This document shows, piece by piece, positions 11,791-31,148 of a stretch of DNA of 31,148 bases. The notes under the pieces are model-generated. The model did not search any database. It worked only from the letters and a program-made list of their open reading frames with translations, and was not told where the DNA came from. The position numbers were made by a program, and so were the translations under genes. Numbering within the stretch: the stretch's first letter is position 1; the number at the start of each line of letters is the position of its first letter. The stretch comes from Deltaproteobacteria bacterium (GTDB lineage: Bacteria; Desulfobacterota; Desulfomonilia; UBA1062): positions 1 to 31,148 of the forward strand of contig JAGVNP010000311.1 in NCBI GenBank assembly GCA_020053185.1. Reading direction: 5' to 3'.

Positions 11791-11954
11791 TGATGAACCA
11801 GCAAAAAAGCCGACACAGTGTCATTCCCGCATCATTTTCTGTCATTCCCGCGGAGGCGGGAATCCAGGGGTTGTGCAATTATCAGAGAATACTGGATTCC
11901 CATTTGCATGGGAATGACAACGGGTATGTTTTCCGACTTTTTACGAGATCATCA
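11791..11954. repeat. Composite palindromic MITE/REP-like element, copy A
   Basis: Core GTCATTCCCGCGGAGGCGGGAATCCAG...CTGGATTCCCATTTGCATGGGAATGAC (11841-11918) inside imperfect outer inverted repeats TGATGAACCAGCAAAAAAGCC / GACTTTTTACGAGATCATCA. Confidence 0.8.
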
Positions 11955-15234: not shown

Positions 15235-18200
15235 ATGGAAAATGGCCTCATGAAAAGAAAAGCCTCATTAGGGCTGAAAATACTTTTACAGGCAGGGGTT
15301 ACCCCTCACCTTGCTGTCATTCCCGCGGAAGCGGGAATCCAGAAAAAGATGAGCAAAGAACCTGGATTCCCGACCTGGTCGGGAATGACAAGACTGATGG
15401 ACCTTTTCCGGTTTACGAATCACGGTTTACGAATCACGAATTACGAATCACGAATTACGAATTACGCCCTACGTTTTACGCTTTACGTAATAGCAGCGTT
15501 GCTCGGCATTTTTGTTGCTACAGGAAGACCTGCGTTAGCATTCACCGAAGCGGGCACTCATATTTATAATACTTCATTTGCAACATATGAAGACACAGAC
15601 GGCTTTATCTATCATATTCAATCCAATACCGTAGAATTAACAGTAGCCCAGGTGTATGCGATCAATATCACACCTGACGGCACAACCGCCTCGCCAGGTC
15701 AGAAAAAAAATGCATATCCGGGCGGAGAGGTTTATTTACCATATGTACTTACAAACCCTGGAAACGGCCCAGACTCATATCAGCTTGATGTAGAAAATCT
15801 ACCTGGCGATGATGAGGATCTTAGCAATCTTAAAATTTATATCGATGAAAATCAGAACGGGGTTGTTGATCCATCAGAGCCTGTTTATGATAACACCAAT
15901 CCTCCGCTCATTGATTCAGGTGGGAGGCTCTATCTTGTAATAGCAGGCACAGTTCCTGCATCTGTGGCTTCAGGCACGATTTTTGTAAATGTGAACGGGA
16001 CTTCAAACGGAGATGGGACAAAGGTCGATAATGAAAATGTTTCAAAAATCAACATAACAGCAGATGGGTTTATCGAGGCATACAAGTCTGCTGACAAAAC
16101 CGAAGTAGACCCCGGTGGTACGGTTACCTTTACCATAGAATTCCAGAATAAAGGCTCAAAGCCTGTTTTGGGCACAGATATCTTCAACTGTAATGGCGAT
16201 TTTGATAATGATGGGACAACAGAGACAGCAGAGCAAGGGCTTCTGGTAGCTGATGTTGTACCGGATCATCTGACCTACATCGACGGAAGCGCCACATGGG
16301 CGCCGTTGCAGGGATTCCCCGTGTTTGCAGGCACAAACGGGATCTGGAAGGACGATGCCTCTGATGTAACTGGCTCAATTGAGTCAGTAGGGCTCTTTAT
16401 ACCTGAGGATGCATCTGGCGAGACACTTGTGCCGGATCAGGGCGGATTTGTTTCTTTCCGATGCACGGTAAATACTGATGCGCCGGTAAGTACAATTTCG
16501 AACACAGCAGAAGTTAAATATGCAAATTTAAACGGGCACCAGGTCACACCTACCAATACGGTAGAAGTGGATATACTTCCCAGAATAGATATCCGGGCTG
16601 ATGACACGGATGAAATCAACGAACCCGAGCACGAAGGCTCTGGAGTAGCGTCAGACGAGCATGATGTGATGTGGATCGACCATGCTGCATCCGGGGCGTG
16701 TATAAGCTTTGAAAATGAGGTTTGGAATCTCGGGAATGTAGACGATGTGATCAATGTCACATTTGATCAATCAAGATCTGAAAACCTGCCAGATGGCGCC
16801 GCTACCACTGGGGTCCTGTTCTATAACTTAGACGGCGCACTGCTGACAGACAGCAACGGCGACGGCAAGCCAGATGTAGGCGTTGTAAGTCCTGGAGAAA
16901 GCGTTCACTTTATCACAAAGGTCTGTTTCCCTGAAGGGAGTTCCGCGAATGATGTAGTGATTGCAGTAGAAGGTTCTTCCAGCCTGGACCCCAGCAAGAC
17001 CGATCTCACATTTAACAGGACCGGTGAAGTAGTGGCAGCTTCTGTCAAAGTGAATGTCATTGTTGGGAATACAGAAGAGCCCTGGGTCAAGAAAAAAGTT
17101 ATTGTTTATGAATATGACTGCTACGGAAACCTTACAGATCAAAAGGTTTTCTGGACCGATAGTAGCGGATTTATCGCATATGATGAATTTGGCAATTCCT
17201 CTCCCCTCTACAACTGGATAGAGGATAGTGACCCTAACGACCCTGACTGTAAATATACCTACAGAATAGGGCTTACCGAAGACTACTCGGGCTTTACTTA
17301 TTATGTATCCCCTGGATTCTCCAAGTCAGATATTGACCAGACAACCTCCTCCGATGAAACCCCCAAGCCTGGCACAGGGGGAAAGATCACTACTCAGAAG
17401 CTTCCAAGCGGGGGAAAAGTGTTGTCGGCCAGCATTGATCCTGCAGGATATGTCTATGATGGGGTGACAGGAGAGCGCATAGACAGGGCATGTGTCGTAC
17501 TTTATAAATGCAATGATAGTTCCTGCTCCAGCTATACTGCTGTTGATGCATCACTCCTTGATGTGTATCCTGACGGAAGCACGTTACAGGACAATCCGCA
17601 GGTCTCAGGCCCTACAAATGGGTCTGGCACTGATGTGGGAAAAGGCGATGGGGCCTTTGAGTTTAAGTTTTCTGATTTTACGCCAACAGATGAAGGGTGG
17701 TATTTTGTAGAGGTTGATTTTGACTGCGGGCTTCCTGCCAGCGATGCAAATCTGGCAAATGATTATAATCCTGTATTGCTTAATTCCGGCGCCACATGGG
17801 ATCCTTCTTCAGGAGCGCCTTACCATGGCCAGCGTTTCTATATTGATGCAACCAATTCCGGCGCAATAAACATGAGGATTCCTTTGCTGCCAGCGGATTT
17901 TGTTCCTATTGAGATCAAAAAAGAGGTGAATAGCGATATTGCATCCATAGGCGATCCGCTCAAGTTCACCATTACAGTAACGAACCCTAGCCCATACACA
18001 TGCTATGATGTGGATGTAATTGATACGCTGCCAAAAGAGCTTCGGTACAGAAAAGGCACAACAACCATAGACGGGGCTAAAGCCGATGATCCTGAGATCT
18101 CTTCTGATGCAAGAATGCTTACATGGAATATAGGAAACCTTGATCCGGGCGGTAGTGTAAAAATCACGTTTTATGCAATAGTAGGTGCAAACATCACAGA

Positions 18201-20651: not shown

Positions 20652-20794
20652 TGATGATTTCATAAAAAGTCAAATATCCTGTCACTCCCGTTCTATTTCT
20701 TGTCACTCCCGCGGAGGCGGGAGTCCAGAACTGCTTTCTGGAAATTCCTGGATTCCCGTTTGCATGGGAATGACTGCTTTTTGCGGATTCACCA
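20652..20794. repeat. Composite palindromic element, copy C, between genes C and D
   Basis: Outer TGATGATTTCATAAAAAGTC ... GCTTTTTGCGGATTCACCA; core GTCACTCCCGCGGAGGCGGGAGTCCAG...CTGGATTCCCGTTTGCATGGGAATGAC at 20702-20774. Confidence 0.78.
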
Positions 20795-20795
20795 A

Positions 20796-20946
20796 AGGTT
20801 ATGAAGGTTAAGGGGTAGGGATTAAGGGATTATGGTTCAAGGTTCAAAATACATGGTTCAGGGTACAGGGGAAAATTTCGAAATTCGAAATTCGAAATTC
20901 GAAATTCGGAACACCCTGCGCCTTATACCTTATACCTTACACCTCT
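20796..20946 (+). repeat. Composite heptamer cassette spanning the RBS, start codon and n-region of gene D
   Basis: TAAGGG/GGTTCA units, then (TTCGAAA)n, then (ACCTTAT/ACCTTAC)n; a related array sits at 20589-20651. Confidence 0.75.
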
Positions 20947-23900
20947 CACTTGTATTTTTCATCCTGCTGTGCCTTATGCCCTTGAGCGGGTATGCACAAA
21001 CCTCGAACTCCGATCCCCGAACCCTGACCCCTGACCCCCGATCCCAGAACATTGCTTATTCCATCCAGATCGGGCCAAACATGGACAAGCCAGGCGCTGA
21101 ATCCTTTTTAAAGACTCTCCCGGATGCAGTGAAGAACAAAGATGCCTTTATATATCAGACAGACAAAGGATACTGGACTGTTCGTGTGGGTATTACAGAA
21201 AAGCCGGAAGGGTTAGATGAGCTCAAAAAATGGCTGGCATCTGAAGGCATTGAAGATGCAGCTGCAGTAAAGACAGACATACGGAAGGTCAGTGGTCAGT
21301 GGTCAGGAGCCAGGAGTCAGGAGTCAGGGATCAAAGGTGAAAGCTCAAAGGAAATAACTCCGCAAACCACAATCCGAGATTCGAAATTGAAAGATGAAGC
21401 ATTGATTCTGCCTATGATCGATAAGGTCTATTCTACGCTCTGGTCTGTACAGCTCGGATCATACAGCGATAAACAGACCATGGAAGCCTTTTTTCAGAGT
21501 CTTCCTGATTCAGTGAAGCGCAAAAATGCCTTTATATATAAAGGTAAGCGGGGATATTGGGCTGTTCGTGTGGGTTTTGCAGAAAAGCCGGAAGGCTTGG
21601 ATGAGCTAAAGGCATGGCTGGTCTCTCAAGGGCTTGAAGACATACATATGGCGAAGACTGAAGTAAAAAAGATAGAGTCCAAAGAGCTGAGAGATAAGTT
21701 GCTTGGTCGTTCTGTAAAAGAAGCGGACACAAAGACTCTAGAGCCCGAGGAAGACGAGTGGAAGACCATTTACAGTGTGCGGCTATTGAGAACAGAAAAC
21801 CTGAAACAAGTACAAAATGCAACCATAGATATAGAATCCAAGGGCATTCCCACATTCATGAGCGAGAACATCACGTATTTTAAGAAGAGGCTGTACACAC
21901 TCTATGTGGGAAGATTCTTGAGCCAGGATGAAGCTGAGAAGGCAGCTGCTGAATTATCGAAAAAATACGGCAAATGTCCTGTTGACCCATTGTTTACACG
22001 AACAATAGGTGGCGACAGCCTCGGAGACATATTCTACCTTGACGCAATGCATACCCTGGAGCCAAAGGTACCTAACAGACTTTCTACATCAGGCACTCAG
22101 GAAAATCGCCGCGCCGAAGTACTGATATTGCTCTTCAAGGAAACCACAGAGTCGGTAGAAAAGTCCTTTATGGAAAAAGGCAAAGGAAGTCAGTGTATCT
22201 TTAAATTTTATGCAAACTATCTCTATCCCCTTGAAGAGATTTACGATATCAGCGCCTTCATGAGCCTTCCTGAAGGGTCAGCATATGTGGATGGTAGCTT
22301 TGTGATAAATGAAATCCCTGTTACAACAGCGAAGAAAGGCAGATATATTGTTGCCTCTACAGAAAAGCTCATCGGGTATGATCCATTTACCATGAGCATA
22401 AATGTGGCCGGAAGAGAGGATATAAAAACAGAGGAGATCCACTATGTGGTTTATGGAAAGACAAGAAACGGCAAGACGCTAAAGCTTGTTACCTCGAATG
22501 ATGAGATAATGGAAAATGAAGCACTTGCTATCTATCTTCCAAATCCCACACCCGAGAAGATGGAAGAATCTGAGGTAAAGGCGCTTATCAGGAAACCTTC
22601 TTTCGGCATCATTTATCCTGAGAGGAATATCATTGTCTCAGGCAAGCAGACAGATATCGATGTGGCAATCCCCGTGAAGTCCGAATACAAGCTGCTCATA
22701 AATGGCAAAGAAGCTGATAAGAAGAACCTGTCAGAGACAGCCACGGATGAAAAGCTTGGAGTTAAGGTGGTAAGCTACACAGCAGTAGCTTTGGAAGATG
22801 GCGAAAACCACATAAAGATTATTGTTGACGGGAAGCCTTTTGATGAAAAGCAGATTACTGTAACAGGAAATGTGGCGCGTCTTAGCTACGAGATCTATCC
22901 TAAAGAGCCGTCTGCAGACGGCAAATCGAGCGCATATGTTATGGTGCGGCTCCTTGATAAGGATGGTAAGCCTGTAAAACAGAATGCATATATAAAGGTC
23001 TACGTTGATAAAGGTGATATCTTCGATGACGAGACCGATTCGTTCAAGCGTTTTGATGATGACGGATTTGAGGCACGGGTAATAGCAGGCGAGGCTACCA
23101 TAAAACTTTCCCCTGCAAGCACTACAGAAAAACGCAGTATGAAGGTGGAGTTTGGCGATGGTCTTGAAAAAGATATCGATGTGCGCTTTTATCCTGAGAA
23201 GAGACCCTGGATAGTAAACGGCGTGATTGAAGGCACTTATACTGAGAGTAAGACGAAAAATTCAGATGAGGCTCTTGTCGAATATCCTGCAGATCATTCT
23301 GAAGAGGGCTCGCATACTGATGTTGACGGCGGAGTGTTTGCAAAAGGCAGTGTCAAAGATTATACCCTGACATTTAAGTATGAAAATAAGCCAAAAGATG
23401 AAGACATAATTCTGGAGCAGAACATTCCATCTACAGAAGAGGAGCAATACTATCCTGTATATGGCGATGAGTCAGAGCAGTTCTTTGAGGCAGCCTCCCA
23501 GGACAAGTTTTTTGTCAAGGCAGAGCGGGGCCTGTCCTATTTCATGCACGGAGATTTCAAGACAGATCTGAAAGCCCCTCAGCTGGAATACAATGTCTAT
23601 GACAGAACGCTTAATGGAGAAAAAATCAATCTTGAAGTGAAGGATAATTTCAAGATCACAGGCATACATTCATATACATCCCAGGATATAGTGAAAGACG
23701 AGCAGCCGGGCCGGGGCGTTTCAGGGCCGTATTTCTTTGGAAAAGGCATACCTGTTGAGTTCAGTGAAAAAATCTACATCGAAGTGAGAGACCGGTATCA
23801 TCCGGATAGAGTGCTTGACAGGCAGGATCTCAACAGGTTCACCGATTATACTGTAAACTATGATGAAGGCTGGGTTCTGTTCAAAGAGCCTGTACATCAA

Positions 23901-26453
23901 TATGATGATAATTTTGATCTGCAATATATCGTTATAATCTATGAGACTAATACGCTGGCTGAAGACAAGCATGTCTTTGGCGGAAGGGCAGAAAAAGAGC
24001 TGATAAAAGGCCTGCGTATAGGCGGTCTTGCTGCAAGCGAAGAGAGGGATGTTAAAGACAGGCTGGTAGGCGGCCTTGATATCACATATGACGACGGCAA
24101 AGGACTAAAGTTTGTTGCAGAATATACGGCTGCAGACGGATATGATGAGATTGCCCTAAAAGAAGTATCAGGTGATGCAAAAAGGGCTGAGATCTCTTAT
24201 GATAAGGAATTCAAGAAATTTACAGAAAAAGGAAACGCCTATTTTACCGATGTTGAAGACGAGTTTCAGAATCTGTCTACCAGCGCCATCATAGATGGTA
24301 AACAGGCCTATGGCGCCAAAGAGGAGTTTAAGGTAAAGAAGACAAAGACGACGTTGTCTGCAGAAGCCTACAGCGAAGAGGAAAAAGACGGAAGCTCTAC
24401 AACAAAGGTTGCATCTGCCGAGGTGAAACAGGAAATCGGAAAGAAAGTTTCGCTCACTGCAGGCGCAAGGGTGATCAATGAAGAAGAGCCTCCGGATGAA
24501 AGAGATATTACCCAGGTCATAGGCGGGATAGGCATAAAGCCTATAGAAAAATTGAGCATTAATGTAAGAAGAGAGCAGTCTCTCGTGGATGACGATGAGG
24601 AAAAATCAGACCGCTATCCTTCCAAGACAGTAGCAGGGATAAAATATAGTCTTACGAAGAAGACATCGGCATATGTAACCACTGAACTTCAGGAACTGCC
24701 TGAAAAAGACGTTGCCCTGACAACGTTCGGCACAGAGACCTCGCTCACGAAAAACACCACTGCCTTTGCAAAATACACGATCGATGACAGCATTAGTGGC
24801 TGGAGAAATCAGGCTCACTCTGGGCTTAACCATTCGTGGGCGATCGAGGATAATTTCTCAATAAGTGTAGGCGGAGAAGAGGTCAGAACGTTATCCGGTG
24901 ATGACAGCGAAGATTATACGGCATCGAACATAGGTTTCCAGTATTTTCAACCTGATAAGAAAAAATATACCATGTCTGGAAAATGCGAAGCGCGGTTTAA
25001 CAATGAAACAGACAATGAGTATGTAATGAGCTTTGGCGGCACACTCAAGATCGCAAAAGACTATACCATACTTGCGCGGGAGAGATTTTTCGATTCAGAG
25101 TTTGACGAAAACGACCTTCTCTTAGGTCTTGCATACAGACCTGTTTCCTATGACAAATTCAATAGCTTGATGAAATTCAGATATAAATGGATAGAAGAGA
25201 GTGAAGAGGAGAAGATAGTAAAATATATAGGGTCATGGCATGCCAACTATCAGCCCAACAGAGATCTTACCCTCATGGGAGAGTATGCATTCAAGATCGT
25301 TGATGATGGGCTACACACCTACACGGATCTTGCACGCTTACGGGTTTTGTATGATGTGACAGACAGGATAGATTTAGGGGTGCATGGCGGCGTTCTGATG
25401 CAGCATGATACAGATACATACAGCCTTGCATACGGGCCAGAGGTCGGCGTTAGGGTGATCAAGAATGTATGGGCAAGCGCAGGCTACAACTTCTCGGGCC
25501 TTACGGATGAAGATTTTGACGATGCAAGCGCCTGGAACAAGGGTTTTTACTTCAAGCTGAGGGCAAAGGTTGACGAAAATACGCTCTCAGATATTAAAAA
25601 AGCAGTAAAGAGGAACCCGAAGGAAAAGAAGATCGAGGCATCAAAAGAGACAGTAAAAAAGATAGAACCTTTGATGGATTCAGATAATGATGGCGTGCCT
25701 GACTCTAAGGATAAGTGTCCTGATACACCGAAAGGTGTAGCGGTTGATAAATCTGGATGCCCCATAGACAGTGACAATGACGGTGTAGCTGATTATTTAG
25801 ACAAATGTCCAGACACACCAAAAGGTGTAAAGGTAGACGGGTTTGGATGTGCTCTTGATAGCGATGCAGATGGTGTTCCTGACTATCTTGACAAGTGTCC
25901 TGATACACCGAAAGGCGTTAGAGTTGATAAGGTCGGATGTCCCCTTGATAGCGATAAAGACAGTATTCCTGATTTTCAGGATAAATGTCCGGAAACGCCT
26001 TCTGGTGTAGCTGTGGATCTGACAGGCTGTCCGCTTGATAGTGATGGTGATAATGTTTCTGATTACCGGGACAAATGCCCTGGTACGCCAAAAGGCGTAG
26101 CAGTTGATGAGAATGGATGCTGGACGCTTCATGGTGTGTTGTTCGAGTATAAAGAATGGAAACTTAAAAAAGCGATTTATCCCAGCCTGAAAGATGTGGT
26201 TAAGGTGCTGAAGGCGAATCCGGAACTTAAGATAGAGGTGCAGGGTCATACTGATAATATTGGAAACGATAAGTATAATCAGGATCTGTCAAATAAGCGT
26301 GCAAAGGCTGTAGCAGATTTTATTATCAGCCAAGGCATTGCAGCGGATAGGATTTCATATAAGGGTTATGGATTTTCAAAGCCAATTGCTTCGAACGATA
26401 CAGAAAAAGGAAGGGCGATGAACCGCAGGGTTGAGTTCCAGCCAATCTATTAA
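20832..26453 (+). CDS. 1873-aa outer-membrane protein: 3 SPOR, half OmpA-like, Ig-like domains, large predicted beta-barrel, 5 TSP3-like repeats, C-terminal OmpA domain (operon gene D)
   Basis: TAAGGGA RBS; signal peptide ending PLSGYA; SPOR-like YSIQIG...YWTVRVG; alternating amphipathic strands from RPWIVNG (~23200) to GFYFKLRAKVDE (~25575); DSDxDGVPDxxDKCP repeats; canonical GHTDNIG...LSNKRA...GYGFSKP...NRRVE. Confidence 0.88.
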   Translation: MVQGSKYMVQGTGENFEIRNSKFEIRNTLRLIPYTLHLSLVFFILLCLMPLSGYAQTSNSDPRTLTPDPRSQNIAYSIQIGPNMDKPGAESFLKTLPDAVKNKDAFIYQTDKGYWTVRVGITEKPEGLDELKKWLASEGIEDAAAVKTDIRKVSGQWSGARSQESGIKGESSKEITPQTTIRDSKLKDEALILPMIDKVYSTLWSVQLGSYSDKQTMEAFFQSLPDSVKRKNAFIYKGKRGYWAVRVGFAEKPEGLDELKAWLVSQGLEDIHMAKTEVKKIESKELRDKLLGRSVKEADTKTLEPEEDEWKTIYSVRLLRTENLKQVQNATIDIESKGIPTFMSENITYFKKRLYTLYVGRFLSQDEAEKAAAELSKKYGKCPVDPLFTRTIGGDSLGDIFYLDAMHTLEPKVPNRLSTSGTQENRRAEVLILLFKETTESVEKSFMEKGKGSQCIFKFYANYLYPLEEIYDISAFMSLPEGSAYVDGSFVINEIPVTTAKKGRYIVASTEKLIGYDPFTMSINVAGREDIKTEEIHYVVYGKTRNGKTLKLVTSNDEIMENEALAIYLPNPTPEKMEESEVKALIRKPSFGIIYPERNIIVSGKQTDIDVAIPVKSEYKLLINGKEADKKNLSETATDEKLGVKVVSYTAVALEDGENHIKIIVDGKPFDEKQITVTGNVARLSYEIYPKEPSADGKSSAYVMVRLLDKDGKPVKQNAYIKVYVDKGDIFDDETDSFKRFDDDGFEARVIAGEATIKLSPASTTEKRSMKVEFGDGLEKDIDVRFYPEKRPWIVNGVIEGTYTESKTKNSDEALVEYPADHSEEGSHTDVDGGVFAKGSVKDYTLTFKYENKPKDEDIILEQNIPSTEEEQYYPVYGDESEQFFEAASQDKFFVKAERGLSYFMHGDFKTDLKAPQLEYNVYDRTLNGEKINLEVKDNFKITGIHSYTSQDIVKDEQPGRGVSGPYFFGKGIPVEFSEKIYIEVRDRYHPDRVLDRQDLNRFTDYTVNYDEGWVLFKEPVHQYDDNFDLQYIVIIYETNTLAEDKHVFGGRAEKELIKGLRIGGLAASEERDVKDRLVGGLDITYDDGKGLKFVAEYTAADGYDEIALKEVSGDAKRAEISYDKEFKKFTEKGNAYFTDVEDEFQNLSTSAIIDGKQAYGAKEEFKVKKTKTTLSAEAYSEEEKDGSSTTKVASAEVKQEIGKKVSLTAGARVINEEEPPDERDITQVIGGIGIKPIEKLSINVRREQSLVDDDEEKSDRYPSKTVAGIKYSLTKKTSAYVTTELQELPEKDVALTTFGTETSLTKNTTAFAKYTIDDSISGWRNQAHSGLNHSWAIEDNFSISVGGEEVRTLSGDDSEDYTASNIGFQYFQPDKKKYTMSGKCEARFNNETDNEYVMSFGGTLKIAKDYTILARERFFDSEFDENDLLLGLAYRPVSYDKFNSLMKFRYKWIEESEEEKIVKYIGSWHANYQPNRDLTLMGEYAFKIVDDGLHTYTDLARLRVLYDVTDRIDLGVHGGVLMQHDTDTYSLAYGPEVGVRVIKNVWASAGYNFSGLTDEDFDDASAWNKGFYFKLRAKVDENTLSDIKKAVKRNPKEKKIEASKETVKKIEPLMDSDNDGVPDSKDKCPDTPKGVAVDKSGCPIDSDNDGVADYLDKCPDTPKGVKVDGFGCALDSDADGVPDYLDKCPDTPKGVRVDKVGCPLDSDKDSIPDFQDKCPETPSGVAVDLTGCPLDSDGDNVSDYRDKCPGTPKGVAVDENGCWTLHGVLFEYKEWKLKKAIYPSLKDVVKVLKANPELKIEVQGHTDNIGNDKYNQDLSNKRAKAVADFIISQGIAADRISYKGYGFSKPIASNDTEKGRAMNRRVEFQPIY
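21049..21672 (+). repeat. Tandem duplication of a SPOR-like domain within gene D
   Basis: AFIYQTDKGYWTVRVGITEKPEGLDELKKWLASEGIED vs AFIYKGKRGYWAVRVGFAEKPEGLDELKAWLVSQGLED (27/38 identical by hand count). Confidence 0.8.
25674..26123 (+). repeat. Five 90-bp (30-aa) thrombospondin type-3-like Ca-binding repeats
   Basis: xDSDxDGVxDxxDKCPxTPxGVxVDxxGCx five times, exactly 450 nt. Confidence 0.9.
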
Positions 26454-26454
26454 T

Positions 26455-26574
26455 TAAGGGGTAAGGATGATGACACAGGGTTCAGGGGACAGGGTTCAGG
26501 GGAAAATTTCGAAATTCGAAATTCGAAATTCGAATTACACCTTACACCTTACACCTTACGCCTTACGCTTTACG
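26455..26574 (+). repeat. Composite heptamer cassette at the start of gene E
   Basis: TAAGGGGTAAGG-ATGATG-ACACAGGGTTCAGGGGACAGGGTTCAGGGG-(TTCGAAA)n-(CACCTTA)n. Confidence 0.75.
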
Positions 26575-26994
26575 ATAATCTTGATATTCGCCATGATTGT
26601 TGCATCGCCTGTCCATAGCCAGGAAGCAGTTAATCTTTCGCAGGTTGAGCATAAGATCACAGTTGCATCGCAAGGAAGGATAGAAGTCAGTCTCAATCTT
26701 TACAATGACCTTGGTGAAGATATATCTTTAACAGCAGACAAGTGTTGAGGGCTGTCAGTGACCTTCCCGGCGGGAAGTGAGGTAAAAGGCGGTGAGATGA
26801 AACCTGTTGTGATAAACACAACAAAACAAGATACTACAGTGAACATAAAGTTTCAGGGCAAACAAGCAAGCGGGAGCCTGAAAGTGATACTAGAGAGAGA
26901 AAAGAAACAGGTGAAGGCAGTGGAGAGCAAAGCTAAAAATATCCCCATGCCTTCTCCAGAAGTGAAGTATGAAGAAGAAGGAAATAGGGATTGA
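26467..26994 (+). CDS. Small exported beta-rich protein with an in-frame TGA at 26746-26748 (possible selenoprotein, or a nonsense-disrupted gene) (operon gene E)
   Basis: ORFs 26467-26748 and 26758-26994 are in the same frame, separated only by TGA-GGG-CTG-TCA; reads ...LTADKC*GLSVTFPAG...; signal peptide IILIFAMIVASPVHS. Confidence 0.65.
26763..26777 (+). promoter_or_regulatory. Candidate bacterial SECIS hairpin
   Basis: CTTCCC-GGC-GGGAAG; the loop starts 20 nt after the UGA and begins with GG. Confidence 0.45.
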
Positions 26995-27031: not shown

Positions 27032-27186
27032 ATGGTTTTGCAAGAAAGTCCTCATTCTCGTTTTATTTCTGTCATTCCCGCGGAGGCGGGAATCCAGAGA
27101 TCGTACAACTGTCAGAAAATACTGGATTCCCATTTGCATGGGAATGACATGGAAATGATTTTTTCGACTTTTTGAGAGAGCGTTAA
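27032..27186. repeat. Composite palindromic element, copy D, between genes E and F
   Basis: 78-bp core at 27071-27148 with both arms identical to copy A; outer arms ...GCAAGAAAGTC / GACTTTTTGAGAG... Confidence 0.8.
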
Positions 27187-27397
27187 GGGTGAAGGTAAAA
27201 GGTTTCAGTAGGGTATAAAGGCTGAATGTTAATTAAGGGGTAAAATGATGGTTCAGGGTTCAGGGTTCAGGGTTCAAGGTTTAGGGCGAAATTTCGAAAT
27301 TCAAAATTCGAATTTCGAAATTTGCAATTCGCAATCCGCAAATCGCAATCCGCAAATCGCCCCACACCCTACACCTTACACCTTATACCTTAAACCC
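27185..27397 (+). repeat. Composite heptamer cassette at the start of gene F
   Basis: (GGGTTCA)3; perfect 14-bp inverted repeat AAATTTCGAAATTC / GAATTTCGAAATTT (27289-27323); CGCAATC/CGCAAAT units; CACCTTA units. Confidence 0.75.
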
Positions 27398-30300
27398 TTG
27401 TTAGCCATTCTTTTTATCATTGCCTCTTTTCTTATACCCTTTAAAGCCTCTGCAGCGAGCACGTCTCTTGTTATCAATGAGGTGATGTTTGATCCAACAG
27501 GCGCTGATACCGGCTTAGAATGGATAGAGTTTATCGCAAGGAACGATGTAACTATAACAGGGTGGGACTGCTTAGATAAGGATAGTAACACATATACATT
27601 CCCTAGCCTTAGTTTAAAAGCTGGCGAGATCGTGGTCCTGCATATAGGCACGGGCACAAATGATCTTACAGGGCCTGTATATAACCTGTATACCAATGGA
27701 GCCGCTACAACATGGCTTGACAATGTTGGCGACAGTATCCGGCTTAGGAATGGATCAGATGCTGCAGTAGATTATATGGCATACGGAAATGCCGGCGCTT
27801 GGTCTGGCTATACATGGACCAACAACATTGATATTACGTATATCTATGAAGGCCTCAGCATCGGCCTTAGCAGGGACGGGATAGATACTGATAACGGCAC
27901 TGGATGGACAGAGTATTCTACCTCTACATCTGGCAACCCCAATAAGACCTCCGGCATAGGCGTAGTAAAGACAGGAACAGAAGAGATATCAAGGGGAGAC
28001 GCAGCCGGCGGAGAATACACACTAACCATCGCAAACAGCGGTGACGGGCCAGCCTATGGCAGCGCATCATCGCCATATGGCATGGTTGTTGTGGATGACT
28101 ATCCGACAAACTTCTCTGTGTTATCTGTGACATCGGTGACGAGAAACGGGATAACATTCTCGTCGTATTCCCAGTCAAATGATGGCGATAAGATTACGTT
28201 TACAAGTCTGCCTGTGCTTATGCCAGGGGATACGCTGGAGATCAAGTTTAAGTTCTATGTGGACTGCGTTGCAACTATCGGATACAAGACAAATCTTGTA
28301 ACCGCAAAATATCACGACCTTCCTGACCTTTCAGATGCAGAAAAGAATGAGCAGGCTGTTTTGGATACCCTTGTGGACAAAGGCACGCTGGTGGTGAAAA
28401 TGGAGGCCATTGCCATAAACGGCACTCCCATAACACCTACCCCCACACCTGCGGCAGAGGTCGGCGAGACAATAAAGGTAAGGGTTTCGCTGCATAATAC
28501 AGATAACGGCAAGCTTTTTGATGTAGCATCAGCGACAACATGGGGAACAGGGCTTACGTATGTGGGCAATCTGGTATGCAATAATGTCACGTGCAGCTAC
28601 GACAGTGTAAATACAAAGGTAACTTCCACAGTCTCTGAAATTCCTCCGAGTACAATAGATAATACCTACTCATACACCTTTGACGTAAGGGTAGATGCAT
28701 GTGAAAATCTCACATCAACCTCTACCGGCACTGGAAAGTGCCTGGCAGCAGGAGGTATCGAGGAAGGGGTTGAGGTCATTATAAAGACCCCGGATATTGA
28801 TTATACCCTGCCTACCATAAGCATCCCTTATGCAGGGACCCAGTCAGTAAGCATCCCTGTTACAAACAACGGCAACGGCAAGGCATATACATTCAGCCTG
28901 GATACCAACATGGAGAGCCTGCCACTTAGCGTGTCAAATATCGCATCTGGATGGACATACAATGCAGGCACAGGGGTATTTACCTATAGTGCAGCATCGT
29001 ACATTTTGCCAGGGGCAACTATCCCGCTTACCTTTGACCTCGCAACCTCTGTAAGCTGCGCTGACAGAAGCCCTTCAGGCATGATAACCTTTACGCCGCT
29101 GTATTACAACGGCTGCACGAAAGCGTTTGCTGCGCCGCGCAAATACACGACCTTTTCCACTACAAACGTACCTGTTGTCACAATAGCAAAAACAACCCCA
29201 AACACATATGTGCATGTGGGTGATCCTGTGTCGTATACTGTTACCTTGGGCGCATCTTATCCGTCCGGCATATCCGGGAACATTGTGGTCACAGATACTG
29301 TGCCGAGCCAGATAGTAAGTGTAGGCGCATCTGCAACAGCAGGGTCTGTAACAGTGTCGGGCAATGATATTACCTGGACCATTGCTCCCGGAGTGGCAGA
29401 TGGTGAAGTCCTTACCATCACCGGCACAGTGGATAGCGACCCTTGTCTCCAGGGAACAACGATAACCAATTCTGCCTCATTTACTGCAGCAGATACTCAG
29501 GGCTGTCCTTTGGCAGGCTCCGGCTCGGCTACCATATATATAAACAACAACCCTGATGCTACAATTGCCCAGCAGAAGTCTGTGATTGGGTCTTTGGAAG
29601 CATGCAACCCTGCTGGCATTACCATAACAAACACATATACCATGGGCACCGGAGTTTCTGGCACCTGGGCAGGCTCTTCATTTAAAGACGACCTGCACAG
29701 CGGAGGCCTCTGCTATATGACCGGCACTGCCGAATACAGACTTGATACAGATGACGGCTCGGGCACAGCATGGACAGCATGGACAGCAATCTCATCTGGA
29801 AATTTGAGCATTGGCTCCAACGGCGAGCTCCAAGTAGATCTCTCGTTCCTGGCAGCAATAGACGGAGATGCGAATGTTGCAGGCAATGATATTCAGATAA
29901 GATACAAAGTCTATGTGTGCGAGGAAAACCTTGGCGGCGCAACATCTGTGACATGGGATTTGCTCTCAACCCTGCATATAGAGGGTAACACTGGAAGCTG
30001 TGGATCTAACGGAGATTATGTCCAGCATCTGCTTCTGGATCTGTATACTGCGTCCATAGCCCTTGCCATAGACATACCTGCAATAATAGAAGACTGCGGC
30101 GTATATGATGCAACGATCACTGTCTCGATGGACACGCCTGCTCCTTACTATGATCTGATCATTGATATGCCTGTAGGAAACTATGAATATCTGGACAGCC
30201 TTGTTGCGTCAGGATTCAATGGCCACACGCCCGTTGTCAGCACCTTAACTGGTCCTGCAAGGGTGAGGTTCAGCTTTGATTTTGATACCAACAATCCTGA

Positions 30301-31148
30301 TGAATTAAGCGAAGGCGGCACGCTTACATTCCAGTTGAGAAAGATATGCGGAACACCATCCGGAGTATCAGCGACCGGAGAATATAAATCCAGGGAAGAT
30401 ACCAGTTCATGCTGCACCGGAGGCACATGCGGAGACATACTGCGGGGCGACCTGAGCGCATCAGATGCGCCTGTATTCTCCAACAGCGGCGATCTTGTGC
30501 TTAATGTTACCCCTGAGACATATCCTGTGGAGACAACAGATCTCAAGTGGATGATGTATGTTACCAACAGGGGGAGCGGTACTGCTTACAATACTATTAT
30601 TCAGGACATTTTAGGCCCTAATTTTACATATGCAGGCTCTAAGGTAAACGGGGTGGTTGCAAACCCTCTCGTAGAACATGATACACCGTATCTTGGATAC
30701 ACCAGAATCACATGGGATCTGGACAATATCGCTGCATCGAAAACAACATTAATTGAGGAGATTATAACACCTCTTACAGGATATTCCTGTGATCTGGCTG
30801 ATACCACATCCAACATAAACGTATATTGGGGCTGCGGGGATGACCATTGCCAGGAAATAAAAGATGTACTTCTTCCCAAATTTACTTTGACCAGTTCAGA
30901 TGCGATTATCCTAACCAACTACCCTGGCCCGCTGAACATGTGCGATCAAGGCACGATCATACTGCAACTCAAGAACGCAGGCGGGGCACATGTGTACAAT
31001 TCAGAAGTGTCCCATGATTTTGCCCCGAACTCGGAAGACACAGGCCTTATCTATGTACCGGGCTCTGCAGAGGTGAGCACAGATGGGACCAATTATACTG
31101 CAACAAATGATCCGGTTATAAGCGGGAGCACAGTTACATGGCAGGGCT
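27245..31148 (+). CDS. Giant exported adhesin-like protein: lamin-tail-like domain followed by many Cys-containing DUF11/Ig-like domains; 3' end beyond the window (operon gene F)
   Basis: Manual translation from ATG 27245 (TAAGGGG RBS) is open to the window end, over 1300 codons. Signal peptide ...PLLAILFIIASFLIPFKASA; LVINEVMFDPTGADTGLEWIEF; then repeated xxVxKT...GDxVxYTVT...VTDTVP...ITW units. Confidence 0.88.
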   Translation, partial: MMVQGSGFRVQGLGRNFEIQNSNFEICNSQSANRNPQIAPHPTPYTLYLKPLLAILFIIASFLIPFKASAASTSLVINEVMFDPTGADTGLEWIEFIARNDVTITGWDCLDKDSNTYTFPSLSLKAGEIVVLHIGTGTNDLTGPVYNLYTNGAATTWLDNVGDSIRLRNGSDAAVDYMAYGNAGAWSGYTWTNNIDITYIYEGLSIGLSRDGIDTDNGTGWTEYSTSTSGNPNKTSGIGVVKTGTEEISRGDAAGGEYTLTIANSGDGPAYGSASSPYGMVVVDDYPTNFSVLSVTSVTRNGITFSSYSQSNDGDKITFTSLPVLMPGDTLEIKFKFYVDCVATIGYKTNLVTAKYHDLPDLSDAEKNEQAVLDTLVDKGTLVVKMEAIAINGTPITPTPTPAAEVGETIKVRVSLHNTDNGKLFDVASATTWGTGLTYVGNLVCNNVTCSYDSVNTKVTSTVSEIPPSTIDNTYSYTFDVRVDACENLTSTSTGTGKCLAAGGIEEGVEVIIKTPDIDYTLPTISIPYAGTQSVSIPVTNNGNGKAYTFSLDTNMESLPLSVSNIASGWTYNAGTGVFTYSAASYILPGATIPLTFDLATSVSCADRSPSGMITFTPLYYNGCTKAFAAPRKYTTFSTTNVPVVTIAKTTPNTYVHVGDPVSYTVTLGASYPSGISGNIVVTDTVPSQIVSVGASATAGSVTVSGNDITWTIAPGVADGEVLTITGTVDSDPCLQGTTITNSASFTAADTQGCPLAGSGSATIYINNNPDATIAQQKSVIGSLEACNPAGITITNTYTMGTGVSGTWAGSSFKDDLHSGGLCYMTGTAEYRLDTDDGSGTAWTAWTAISSGNLSIGSNGELQVDLSFLAAIDGDANVAGNDIQIRYKVYVCEENLGGATSVTWDLLSTLHIEGNTGSCGSNGDYVQHLLLDLYTASIALAIDIPAIIEDCGVYDATITVSMDTPAPYYDLIIDMPVGNYEYLDSLVASGFNGHTPVVSTLTGPARVRFSFDFDTNNPDELSEGGTLTFQLRKICGTPSGVSATGEYKSREDTSSCCTGGTCGDILRGDLSASDAPVFSNSGDLVLNVTPETYPVETTDLKWMMYVTNRGSGTAYNTIIQDILGPNFTYAGSKVNGVVANPLVEHDTPYLGYTRITWDLDNIAASKTTLIEEIITPLTGYSCDLADTTSNINVYWGCGDDHCQEIKDVLLPKFTLTSSDAIILTNYPGPLNMCDQGTIILQLKNAGGAHVYNSEVSHDFAPNSEDTGLIYVPGSAEVSTDGTNYTATNDPVISGSTVTWQG

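Follow-up and report, generated by a model that had tools for sequence, protein, structure and literature searches.

The window, i.e. the whole 31,148-nt stretch of DNA analysed here, is contig C219 of a metagenome-assembled genome (MAG) of 1.78 Mb in 340 contigs, 78% complete and with 44% GC. Between a gene for a 1873-aa SPOR/TSP3/OmpA protein (20832-26453) and one for a >1300-aa LTD/DUF11 protein (from 27245), it carries a short gene with an in-frame TGA. Direct reading places TGT TGA GGG at 26743-26751, in frame with the open reading frame (ORF) that starts at 26467 (26737-26751 reads GAC AAG TGT TGA GGG), and translation with table 11 yields two ORFs in this same frame, 26467-26748 (93 aa) and 26758-26994 (78 aa). 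When the TGA is read through, the product is a single chain of 175 residues, terminated by another TGA (26992-26994). In this chain selenocysteine (Sec) 94 is flanked by ...LTADKC-U-GLSVTFPAGSEVK, and Cys93 is the sole Cys downstream of the predicted signal-peptide cleavage site VHS/QE. Our reading, to which we assign a probability of ca. 0.87, is that UGA 26746-26748 is a Sec codon and that 26467-26994 encodes one exported, divergent one-domain protein related to the DUF1573/OS_HP2 family. The features of this gene are as follows.

26467-26994, + strand: full read-through gene of 175 codons, with UGA94 as Sec, plus the terminal TGA; an orthologue at locus L051 (see below) has the same layout.
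ATG 26467 or ATG 26470, + strand: start codon, the choice between the two being uncertain, with a Shine-Dalgarno-like AAGGGG upstream.
26467-26619, + strand: leader, with an n-region encoded by a 7-nt repeat, then a hydrophobic h-region FTIILIFAMIVASPV, then the predicted signal-peptidase site VHS/QE.
26623-26898, + strand: predicted single PapD-like/ASH-type Ig beta-sandwich of 8 strands that spans the UGA (AlphaFold2, Foldseek, hhalign).
26743-26745, + strand: TGT codon of Cys93, the vicinal partner of Sec (direct reading).
26746-26748, + strand: UGA94, very probably read as Sec and aligned with the first Cys of the family C-G-C motif (homologue alignment A4).
26749-26751, + strand: codon of Gly95, column G46 being invariant in family alignment A4.
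26763-26777, + strand: putative selenocysteine insertion sequence (SECIS) hairpin, with 5' arm CUUCCC (26763-26768), loop GGC (26769-26771) and 3' arm GGGAAG (26772-26777), its pairs coinciding in position with those of the hairpin of the family in alignment A3.
26899-26991, + strand: Lys/Glu-rich C-terminal tail, predicted to be disordered (predicted local distance difference test, pLDDT, of 51-54 at model residues ca. 100-126) and kept in L051.
26992-26994, + strand: terminating TGA, followed by GGA TAA; L051 stops one codon sooner, at a TAG.

The original prediction had described the in-frame TGT-TGA-GGG, the joining of the two short ORFs into one 175-aa protein by read-through, the Cys next to the UGA as the only one of the mature chain, and a 6-bp stem whose GGC loop lies 20 nt after the UGA, and had noted that selA, selB and selC are not in the window. 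All of these points hold, exactly 20 nt (26749-26768) separating the UGA from the hairpin loop. The protein is predicted to be exported; L051 keeps the hydrophobic leader stretch at the protein level with different codons, and the canonical relatives, of the two-domain form described below, bear either a signal peptide or a lipobox-like motif (V-G-A-C, I-S-A-C).

When 1.84 billion protein representatives were searched exhaustively with HMMER, only three matched. One (P0006) is the N-terminal fragment of the window protein itself, and a second (P0005) is a 76-aa fragment, 69% identical to the part that follows the TGA, which is located on a 663-nt contig of an independent ENA metagenome (locus L051). 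The third, P0007, a repeat protein of 4229 aa that reads A-A-G where the motif would be, was dismissed as a summed-repeat artefact. Searches of genome contigs and of metagenome contigs gave no close relatives of the window protein, and alignment A1 offered no usable conserved stretch for a search of related loci. L051 displays the same gene layout and keeps TGT TGA GGG; ca. 80 nt around the TGA are nearly identical to the window and the remaining gene is ca. 75% identical. The ratio of non-synonymous to synonymous substitution rates (dN/dS, Nei-Gojobori, window versus L051) is 0.09 over the 42 codons before the TGA and 0.29-0.32 over the 76 codons that follow it in the same frame, and both values, lying below 1, show that selection acts at the protein level on both halves. 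In the 12 codons after the TGA only one synonymous difference separates the two sequences, and such a scarcity of synonymous changes directly downstream points to an extra constraint at the nucleotide level, where a SECIS would be expected.

Because L051 keeps the TGA and shows this dN/dS pattern, a sequencing error is excluded as an explanation. An error of sequencing or assembly could have been suspected from the fragmented state of the MAG, yet the independent contig has an identical TGT TGA GGG with its flanks, and the same codon recurs in homologues from 51 other genomes, so that the probability left to such an error is negligible. Another possibility is that the TGA is a plain stop, either in a pseudogene that arose by nonsense mutation or between two small ORFs, the second of which would start from GTG 26758. 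This would agree with the output of gene callers and with public databases, in which only the fragments P0005 and P0006 appear, but it sits badly with a TGA that is kept, under purifying selection on both sides, in an orthologue that is 25% diverged in DNA; it is taken up again below.

More distant relatives came to light in 60 related genomes, where the read-through protein as query gave three weak matches at 24-26% identity, each with one in-frame TGA and the same motif (KPKPC-U-GATVTAPGG; IKRC-U-GVKISAPGG); the single-sequence match to G031 had an E value of 2.4e-4. These relatives fit Pfam DUF1573 (PF07610, 82.8 bits), the HYDIN_VesB_CFA65-like Ig family and the NCBIfam entry NF041425, 'OS_HP2 family (seleno)protein'; relative P0002 scores 82.8 bits with PF07610 (cut-off 26.1) and 75.4 bits with NF041425, the latter being under the cut-off of 100. 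OS_HP2, which is pfam07610/DUF1573, was predicted as a selenoprotein family in 2007 (PMC1976440) and has been catalogued with the Sec motif UxC/UGC (PMC2398784, PMC9312934, PMC13188914). A profile search across the GTDB family to which the MAG belongs had matches in 51 of 52 genomes, mostly with exactly one in-frame TGA. Among the 84 distinct domains that make up the family sample, 62 are of the C-U-G type (a few of them S-U-G or T-U-G), 8 are of the classical U-G-C type and the rest are Cys forms, namely C-C-G (L054, L067), CxC-GG, CxSC-NG and the canonical S/D-C-G-C-T. All 62 sequences of the CUG type, from 51 genomes, follow the pattern [C/S/T]-U-G-[A/V/L]...P-G-G. Direct Cys counterparts at the TGA column occur in L054 (PCCGVTVSAPGG) and L067 (ACCG), so that homologues have either TGA (ca. 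60 of them) or Cys at this position and not Ser, Arg or Trp, as anticipated for a Sec codon. The TGA is thus conserved in L051 and in the 62 CUG-type homologues, and Cys homologues exist both as these direct counterparts and as many CGC, CxCGG and CxSCNG forms; both are features of selenoprotein genes as in PMC1976440, a third being a stem-loop 3' of the UGA with a G in its apical loop, which is also present here.

MAFFT aligns the U of C-U-G with the first Cys of C-G-C; the Gly after it is invariant. The window motif is C-U-G-L: its Sec and Gly align with the family, while position +2 is Leu and the Cys stands at -1, so that it matches neither U-G-C nor C-G-C. Phylum-wide sampling detected the DUF1573 family in 116 of 301 genomes. 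Of the 26 best loci from outside the bacterial family of the MAG, those with Sec are without exception of the U-G-C type and the others are C-G-C. The C-U-G arrangement was therefore seen only in this bacterial family among those examined, in which, judging from the alignments, the partner Cys has shifted from +2 to -1 with the position of Sec unchanged.

The hairpin was evaluated on a gap-free alignment of sixty distinct 60-nt stretches with the TGA at columns 7-9. In the family helix (columns 23-28 / 34-39) 91.4% of the cells are paired, versus 32-59% after displacement of the 3' arm by 1 to 3 columns; compensatory changes occur in 5 of the 6 pairs, with 37 cells altered on both sides, and none of 500 shuffles attains the observed pairing or covariation. 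RNAalifold on its own returns pairs 24-28 with 34-38, and over the 100 nt after the UGA in the CUG group it finds this one conserved helix only. Three bases of the loop, C29, G30 and G31, do not vary. The hairpin overlaps the gene at its conserved (A/V/F)-P-(G/A)-G codons. At pair 26/36, position two of the Ala/Val codon (C or U) varies together with position three of a Gly codon (G or A), where the change is synonymous; the counts are 44 CG, 11 UA, 5 UG and no mismatch. Pair 25/37 is U-A in the window and L051 only and G-C in the 58 others; because U-A replaces G-C at this position, the window hairpin is the family element, kept by a double change. The amino acids by themselves do not impose the structure, since L054, the Cys homologue, shares the S-A-P-G-G residues and keeps only 2 of the 6 pairs, this control consisting of one sequence. 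The SECIS-like hairpin of the original prediction is thus conserved, with covariation, across the family, and decoding of the UGA as Sec with hairpin 26763-26777 is well supported by these comparisons. A second small hairpin, GUUGUG-AUAAA-CACAAC, was noticed at 26809-26825, ca. 60 nt after the UGA, and L051 retains it, apart from a G-U change; because this hairpin shows no conservation in the wider family and its loop does not start with G, it is probably incidental.

AlphaFold2, run with a 60-row alignment, gave a model with a mean pLDDT of 82.7, with blocks of 88-96 over the domain and >90 on both sides of the UGA. The model is an eight-strand sandwich (model residues 4-95) that is continuous across the UGA, as had been predicted from the pattern of beta-strands, and it places Cys-Sec-Gly in a short turn between strands 37-41 and 47-50. 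Foldseek matches with template modelling (TM) scores of 0.4-0.5 included HYDIN PapD-like/ASH domains, ciliary central-pair proteins, MSP, the VesB Ig domain and chaperone-usher chaperones, and AlphaFold2 and Foldseek together assign the domain to the PapD-like/ASH Ig fold. A sequence search of the PDB with P0002 gave one match, the HYDIN PapD-like domain 2e6j (E 0.0035). Against A6, an alignment of 30 family members built without the window and L051, the alignment of these two sequences (A5) scored in hhalign a probability of 90.1% and an E value of 1.6e-6 over 45 columns centred on C-U-G. In this model neither half of the gene can fold as a single Ig domain, which speaks further against a plain stop, as do the retention of the TGA in ca. 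60 distant homologues and the covarying hairpin; we regard that explanation as very unlikely.

The machinery for Sec is partly represented in the MAG. A tRNA-Sec is found on C26 (74.4 bits, gathering score 47; identified by ARAGORN as tRNA-SeC with anticodon tca), and selA on C129, where it is cut by the contig end (363.5 bits, HMM positions 1-268 of 455). In the same GTDB family, four genomes with better assemblies encode SelD as well as a SelB that scores above the cut-off, and the selD of each has one in-frame TGA (G031:C7:37984-38904, G017:C3:477478-478392, G036:C7:17010-17936, G007:C41:95950-96858), so that SelD of those relatives is predicted to be a selenoprotein itself. With tRNA-Sec and selA in the MAG and SelB and SelD in its relatives, the lineage is deduced to use Sec. 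A search of the MAG for a Sec-containing formate dehydrogenase alpha subunit found none, one 52-bit fragment being matched.

Several observations weigh against the reading of 26467-26994 as a selenoprotein gene of this family, or against the redox role discussed below. In the first place, of the machinery that the original prediction had proposed to look for in the genome, tRNA-Sec and selA are present, as said, but neither selB nor selD was found in the 78%-complete MAG; the selB matches cover GTPase domains only, and a selD-like match on C119 was dismissed (96.5 bits, below the cut-off of 125, with the look of an AIR-synthase-related protein and without a SelD-type N-terminus). These two absences, which could also be counted in favour of a plain stop, would most simply be explained by assembly gaps. 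Secondly, the 68-nt fold of 26743-26810 is no better than that of dinucleotide shuffles (z = 0.37; 129 of 200 shuffles fold equally well) and the hairpin is therefore significant only through the comparison of homologues; an Rfam scan of 26650-26900 gave no family at E <= 10. Thirdly, the window protein has no match to PF07610 or NF041425 at E <= 1 in Pfam and NCBIfam and has lost the near-invariant His and the T-N-D-P of the family, whose pattern is H-x-F...N-x-G, T-N-D-P, while it keeps N31, G33, L37, G46 and G60. Because hhalign links it to the family, yet the family HMMs miss it and the His and T-N-D-P are lost, it may be called a divergent one-domain DUF1573 derivative rather than a regular member. 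Finally, no thiol-disulfide genes occur near the window gene, and four CUG-type relatives have Ser (L079, L107) or Thr (L091, L092) in place of the Cys that mostly occupies position -1, so that a vicinal selenenylsulfide would not be universal.

Compared with OS_HP2/DUF1573 proteins (PF07610, NF041425), whose classical UGC members are present across the phylum, this bacterial family included, the window protein shares an exported Ig-like domain of the PapD/ASH type, Sec at the first Cys of C-G-C followed by the invariant Gly, a SECIS in the next ca. 30 nt of coding sequence, and abundant Cys homologues. It differs in its single domain, in the partner Cys at -1 and not +2, in the losses already listed, and in that its SECIS is written on different codons, those for (F/A/V)-P-(A/G)-G. 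Closer in motif is a two-domain CUG-type DUF1573 protein of ca. 250 aa, with a second ASH/choice-of-anchor-D domain, a protein that occurs in 51 of the 52 genomes of the bacterial family and whose gene lies directly upstream of murJ. Both have the C-U-G motif, the hairpin in the same register with its invariant C-G-G loop, and a signal peptide or lipobox, but identity is only ca. 20-26%, and the window protein has the Lys/Glu tail instead of domain 2 and is encoded in a fibre operon.

With the UGA read as Sec, SelA would convert the tRNA-Sec and SelB deliver it, as in the established bacterial pathway, the latter presumably by binding hairpin 26763-26777 with its G-rich loop 20 nt after the UGA. 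The mature product would have ca. 124 residues, made of one PapD-like Ig beta-sandwich and the disordered Lys/Glu-rich tail, and would hold Sec at the first-Cys position of C-G-C with the partner Cys moved from +2 to -1, giving Cys-Sec-Gly. Sec may then act as the nucleophile and the vicinal Cys93 as the resolving residue in a selenenylsulfide cycle, with thiols or disulfides of envelope proteins as its substrates, for which the Cys-rich fibre proteins of the two flanking genes are plausible candidates. Fomenko et al. are said to have reported in 2007 that alignment columns in which Sec pairs with Cys are in general those of catalytic redox cysteines. In the present family the Sec or Cys at the site is always paired with a nearby Cys (CGC, UGC, CUG, CCG, CxCGG, CxSCNG), and it is these two points together that suggest a redox function. 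By this analogy Sec would be the nucleophile of an envelope-exposed redox site, an assignment that we hold tentatively and at somewhat less than even odds.

The same pairs could be read in another way, in which the protein is a genuine selenoprotein whose Cys-Sec site binds a soft metal (e.g. copper) or a metalloid in the envelope. CxC, CC and CU pairs in exposed loops are also typical of soft-metal ligands, and some relatives have a His just ahead of the motif (K-H-C-U-G, G-H-T-U-G). On the other side, the near-invariant His of the family is absent from the window protein, and no copper or other metal genes occur beside the window gene or beside the murJ-linked canonical paralogue in four genera, so that metal binding, while the main alternative to a redox function, is rather unlikely.

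The mammalian thioredoxin reductase has a Gly-Cys-Sec-Gly redox centre at its C-terminus, and the original prediction had drawn a parallel with it. This parallel did not stand beyond a local resemblance of motif, the family being DUF1573/OS_HP2. Both sites have a vicinal Cys-Sec followed by Gly, which could form an eight-membered selenenylsulfide ring; the window motif, however, is internal (residues 93-95 of 175, between two strands) and lies inside a beta-sandwich rather than at a flexible C-terminus, and the window protein is exported, has an in-frame bacterial SECIS, lacks a flavoprotein or oxidoreductase domain and shows no homology to the enzyme.

The position of the gene between two giant envelope/fibre genes, the single Cys-Sec pair of the mature chain and the resemblance of the fold to FaeE, CupB2 and Caf1M (TM 0.4-0.5) could also suggest a selenoprotein acting as a PapD-like chaperone, cap or adaptor of fibre proteins, with Sec in a covalent Se-S link to a subunit Cys. 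As in the chaperone-usher systems, a periplasmic PapD-like Ig sandwich would be encoded among fibre genes. Yet the similarity is that of Ig sandwiches in general, HYDIN, MSP and protease Ig domains scoring alike, identity is 11-16%, the PapD-type chaperones have two domains and not one and are without a Cys-Sec site, and no usher was found. Moreover, no homologue of the downstream fibre gene turned up in 121 genomes of the class. A role of this kind appears quite improbable. A combined version, in which a redox chaperone or covalent Se-S adaptor for Cys-rich giant fibre/envelope proteins was recruited by duplication from a murJ-linked housekeeping selenoprotein, is speculative, and we judge it unlikely.

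A second, canonical two-domain C-U-G copy exists in the same genome (G000:C282:4984-5316(-), L109 / L068), with a 242-codon frame that contains one TGA. The canonical gene lies directly upstream of murJ in four genera, the order of paralogue and murJ being shared with G007, G009 and G031 from other genera. In G031, murJ itself (L110:6849-8391, contig C11) is split into two overlapping ORFs that cover positions 1-187 and 188-444 of the MurJ profile, which reflects either a frameshift or an assembly error.

On the downstream side, the N-terminal 482 aa that follow the leader of the giant LTD/DUF11 protein (27245-31147) had 0 homologues at E <= 1e-10 when 121 further genomes of the class were searched, and the fibre operon seems to be lineage-specific among the genomes sampled. 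Two kinds of repeats were also observed in this operon. Arrays of 7-nt tandem repeats (GGTTCAG, TTCGAAA and CCTTACA units) occur at ca. 26476-26575, 20835-20945 and 27248-27400; in each of three neighbouring genes they follow the ATG and precede the hydrophobic core of the signal peptide, with the frame open, and L051:1-70 carries the same repeat cassette, likewise in frame. Because the gain or loss of one unit would shift the frame, on/off switching of surface proteins by slipped-strand mispairing is conceivable. In addition, an 84-nt strongly palindromic element (fold of -38 kcal/mol), bounded by GTCATTCCC...GGGAATGAC, lies in intergenic gaps of the operon at 27066-27149 and 11836-11919, with partial copies at 15314-15343 and 20748-20774. 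It has 36 blastn matches over ca. 30 contigs of the genome and looks like a repeat of the REP (repetitive extragenic palindromic) or MITE (miniature inverted-repeat transposable element) type.

This is no new kind of system, the family having stood in lists of selenoproteins since 2007. What appears particular here, from the comparison of sequences, is the near-universal murJ-linked C-U-G form in one family of Desulfobacterota, together with its one-domain paralogue in a fibre operon. For the window, the gene model would be corrected from two "hypothetical" fragments to one exported selenoprotein. Among the close database relatives of the canonical form, 26 of 26 are fragments of 136-170 aa that begin after the TGA, and the public proteins related to P0002 (P0008-P0032) are named 'hypothetical protein' or 'choice-of-anchor D domain-containing protein', which amounts to a systematic annotation gap across the C-U-G subfamily. 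Labels carried by relatives are 'uncultured delta proteobacterium', 'Desulfomonilia bacterium' and 'Desulfobacterales bacterium'. The SECIS would be written on conserved Pro-Gly codons and maintained by coupled amino-acid and synonymous changes, and the move of the partner Cys from +2 to -1 around a fixed Sec would illustrate the plasticity of an active site, yielding a natural Cys-Sec-Gly site on an Ig scaffold. A selenoprotein within a giant envelope/fibre operon, with a paralogue tied to murJ, offers leads to the function of DUF1573, and if a role in fibre biogenesis were true, this would be the first selenoprotein assigned to the assembly of an extracellular structure.

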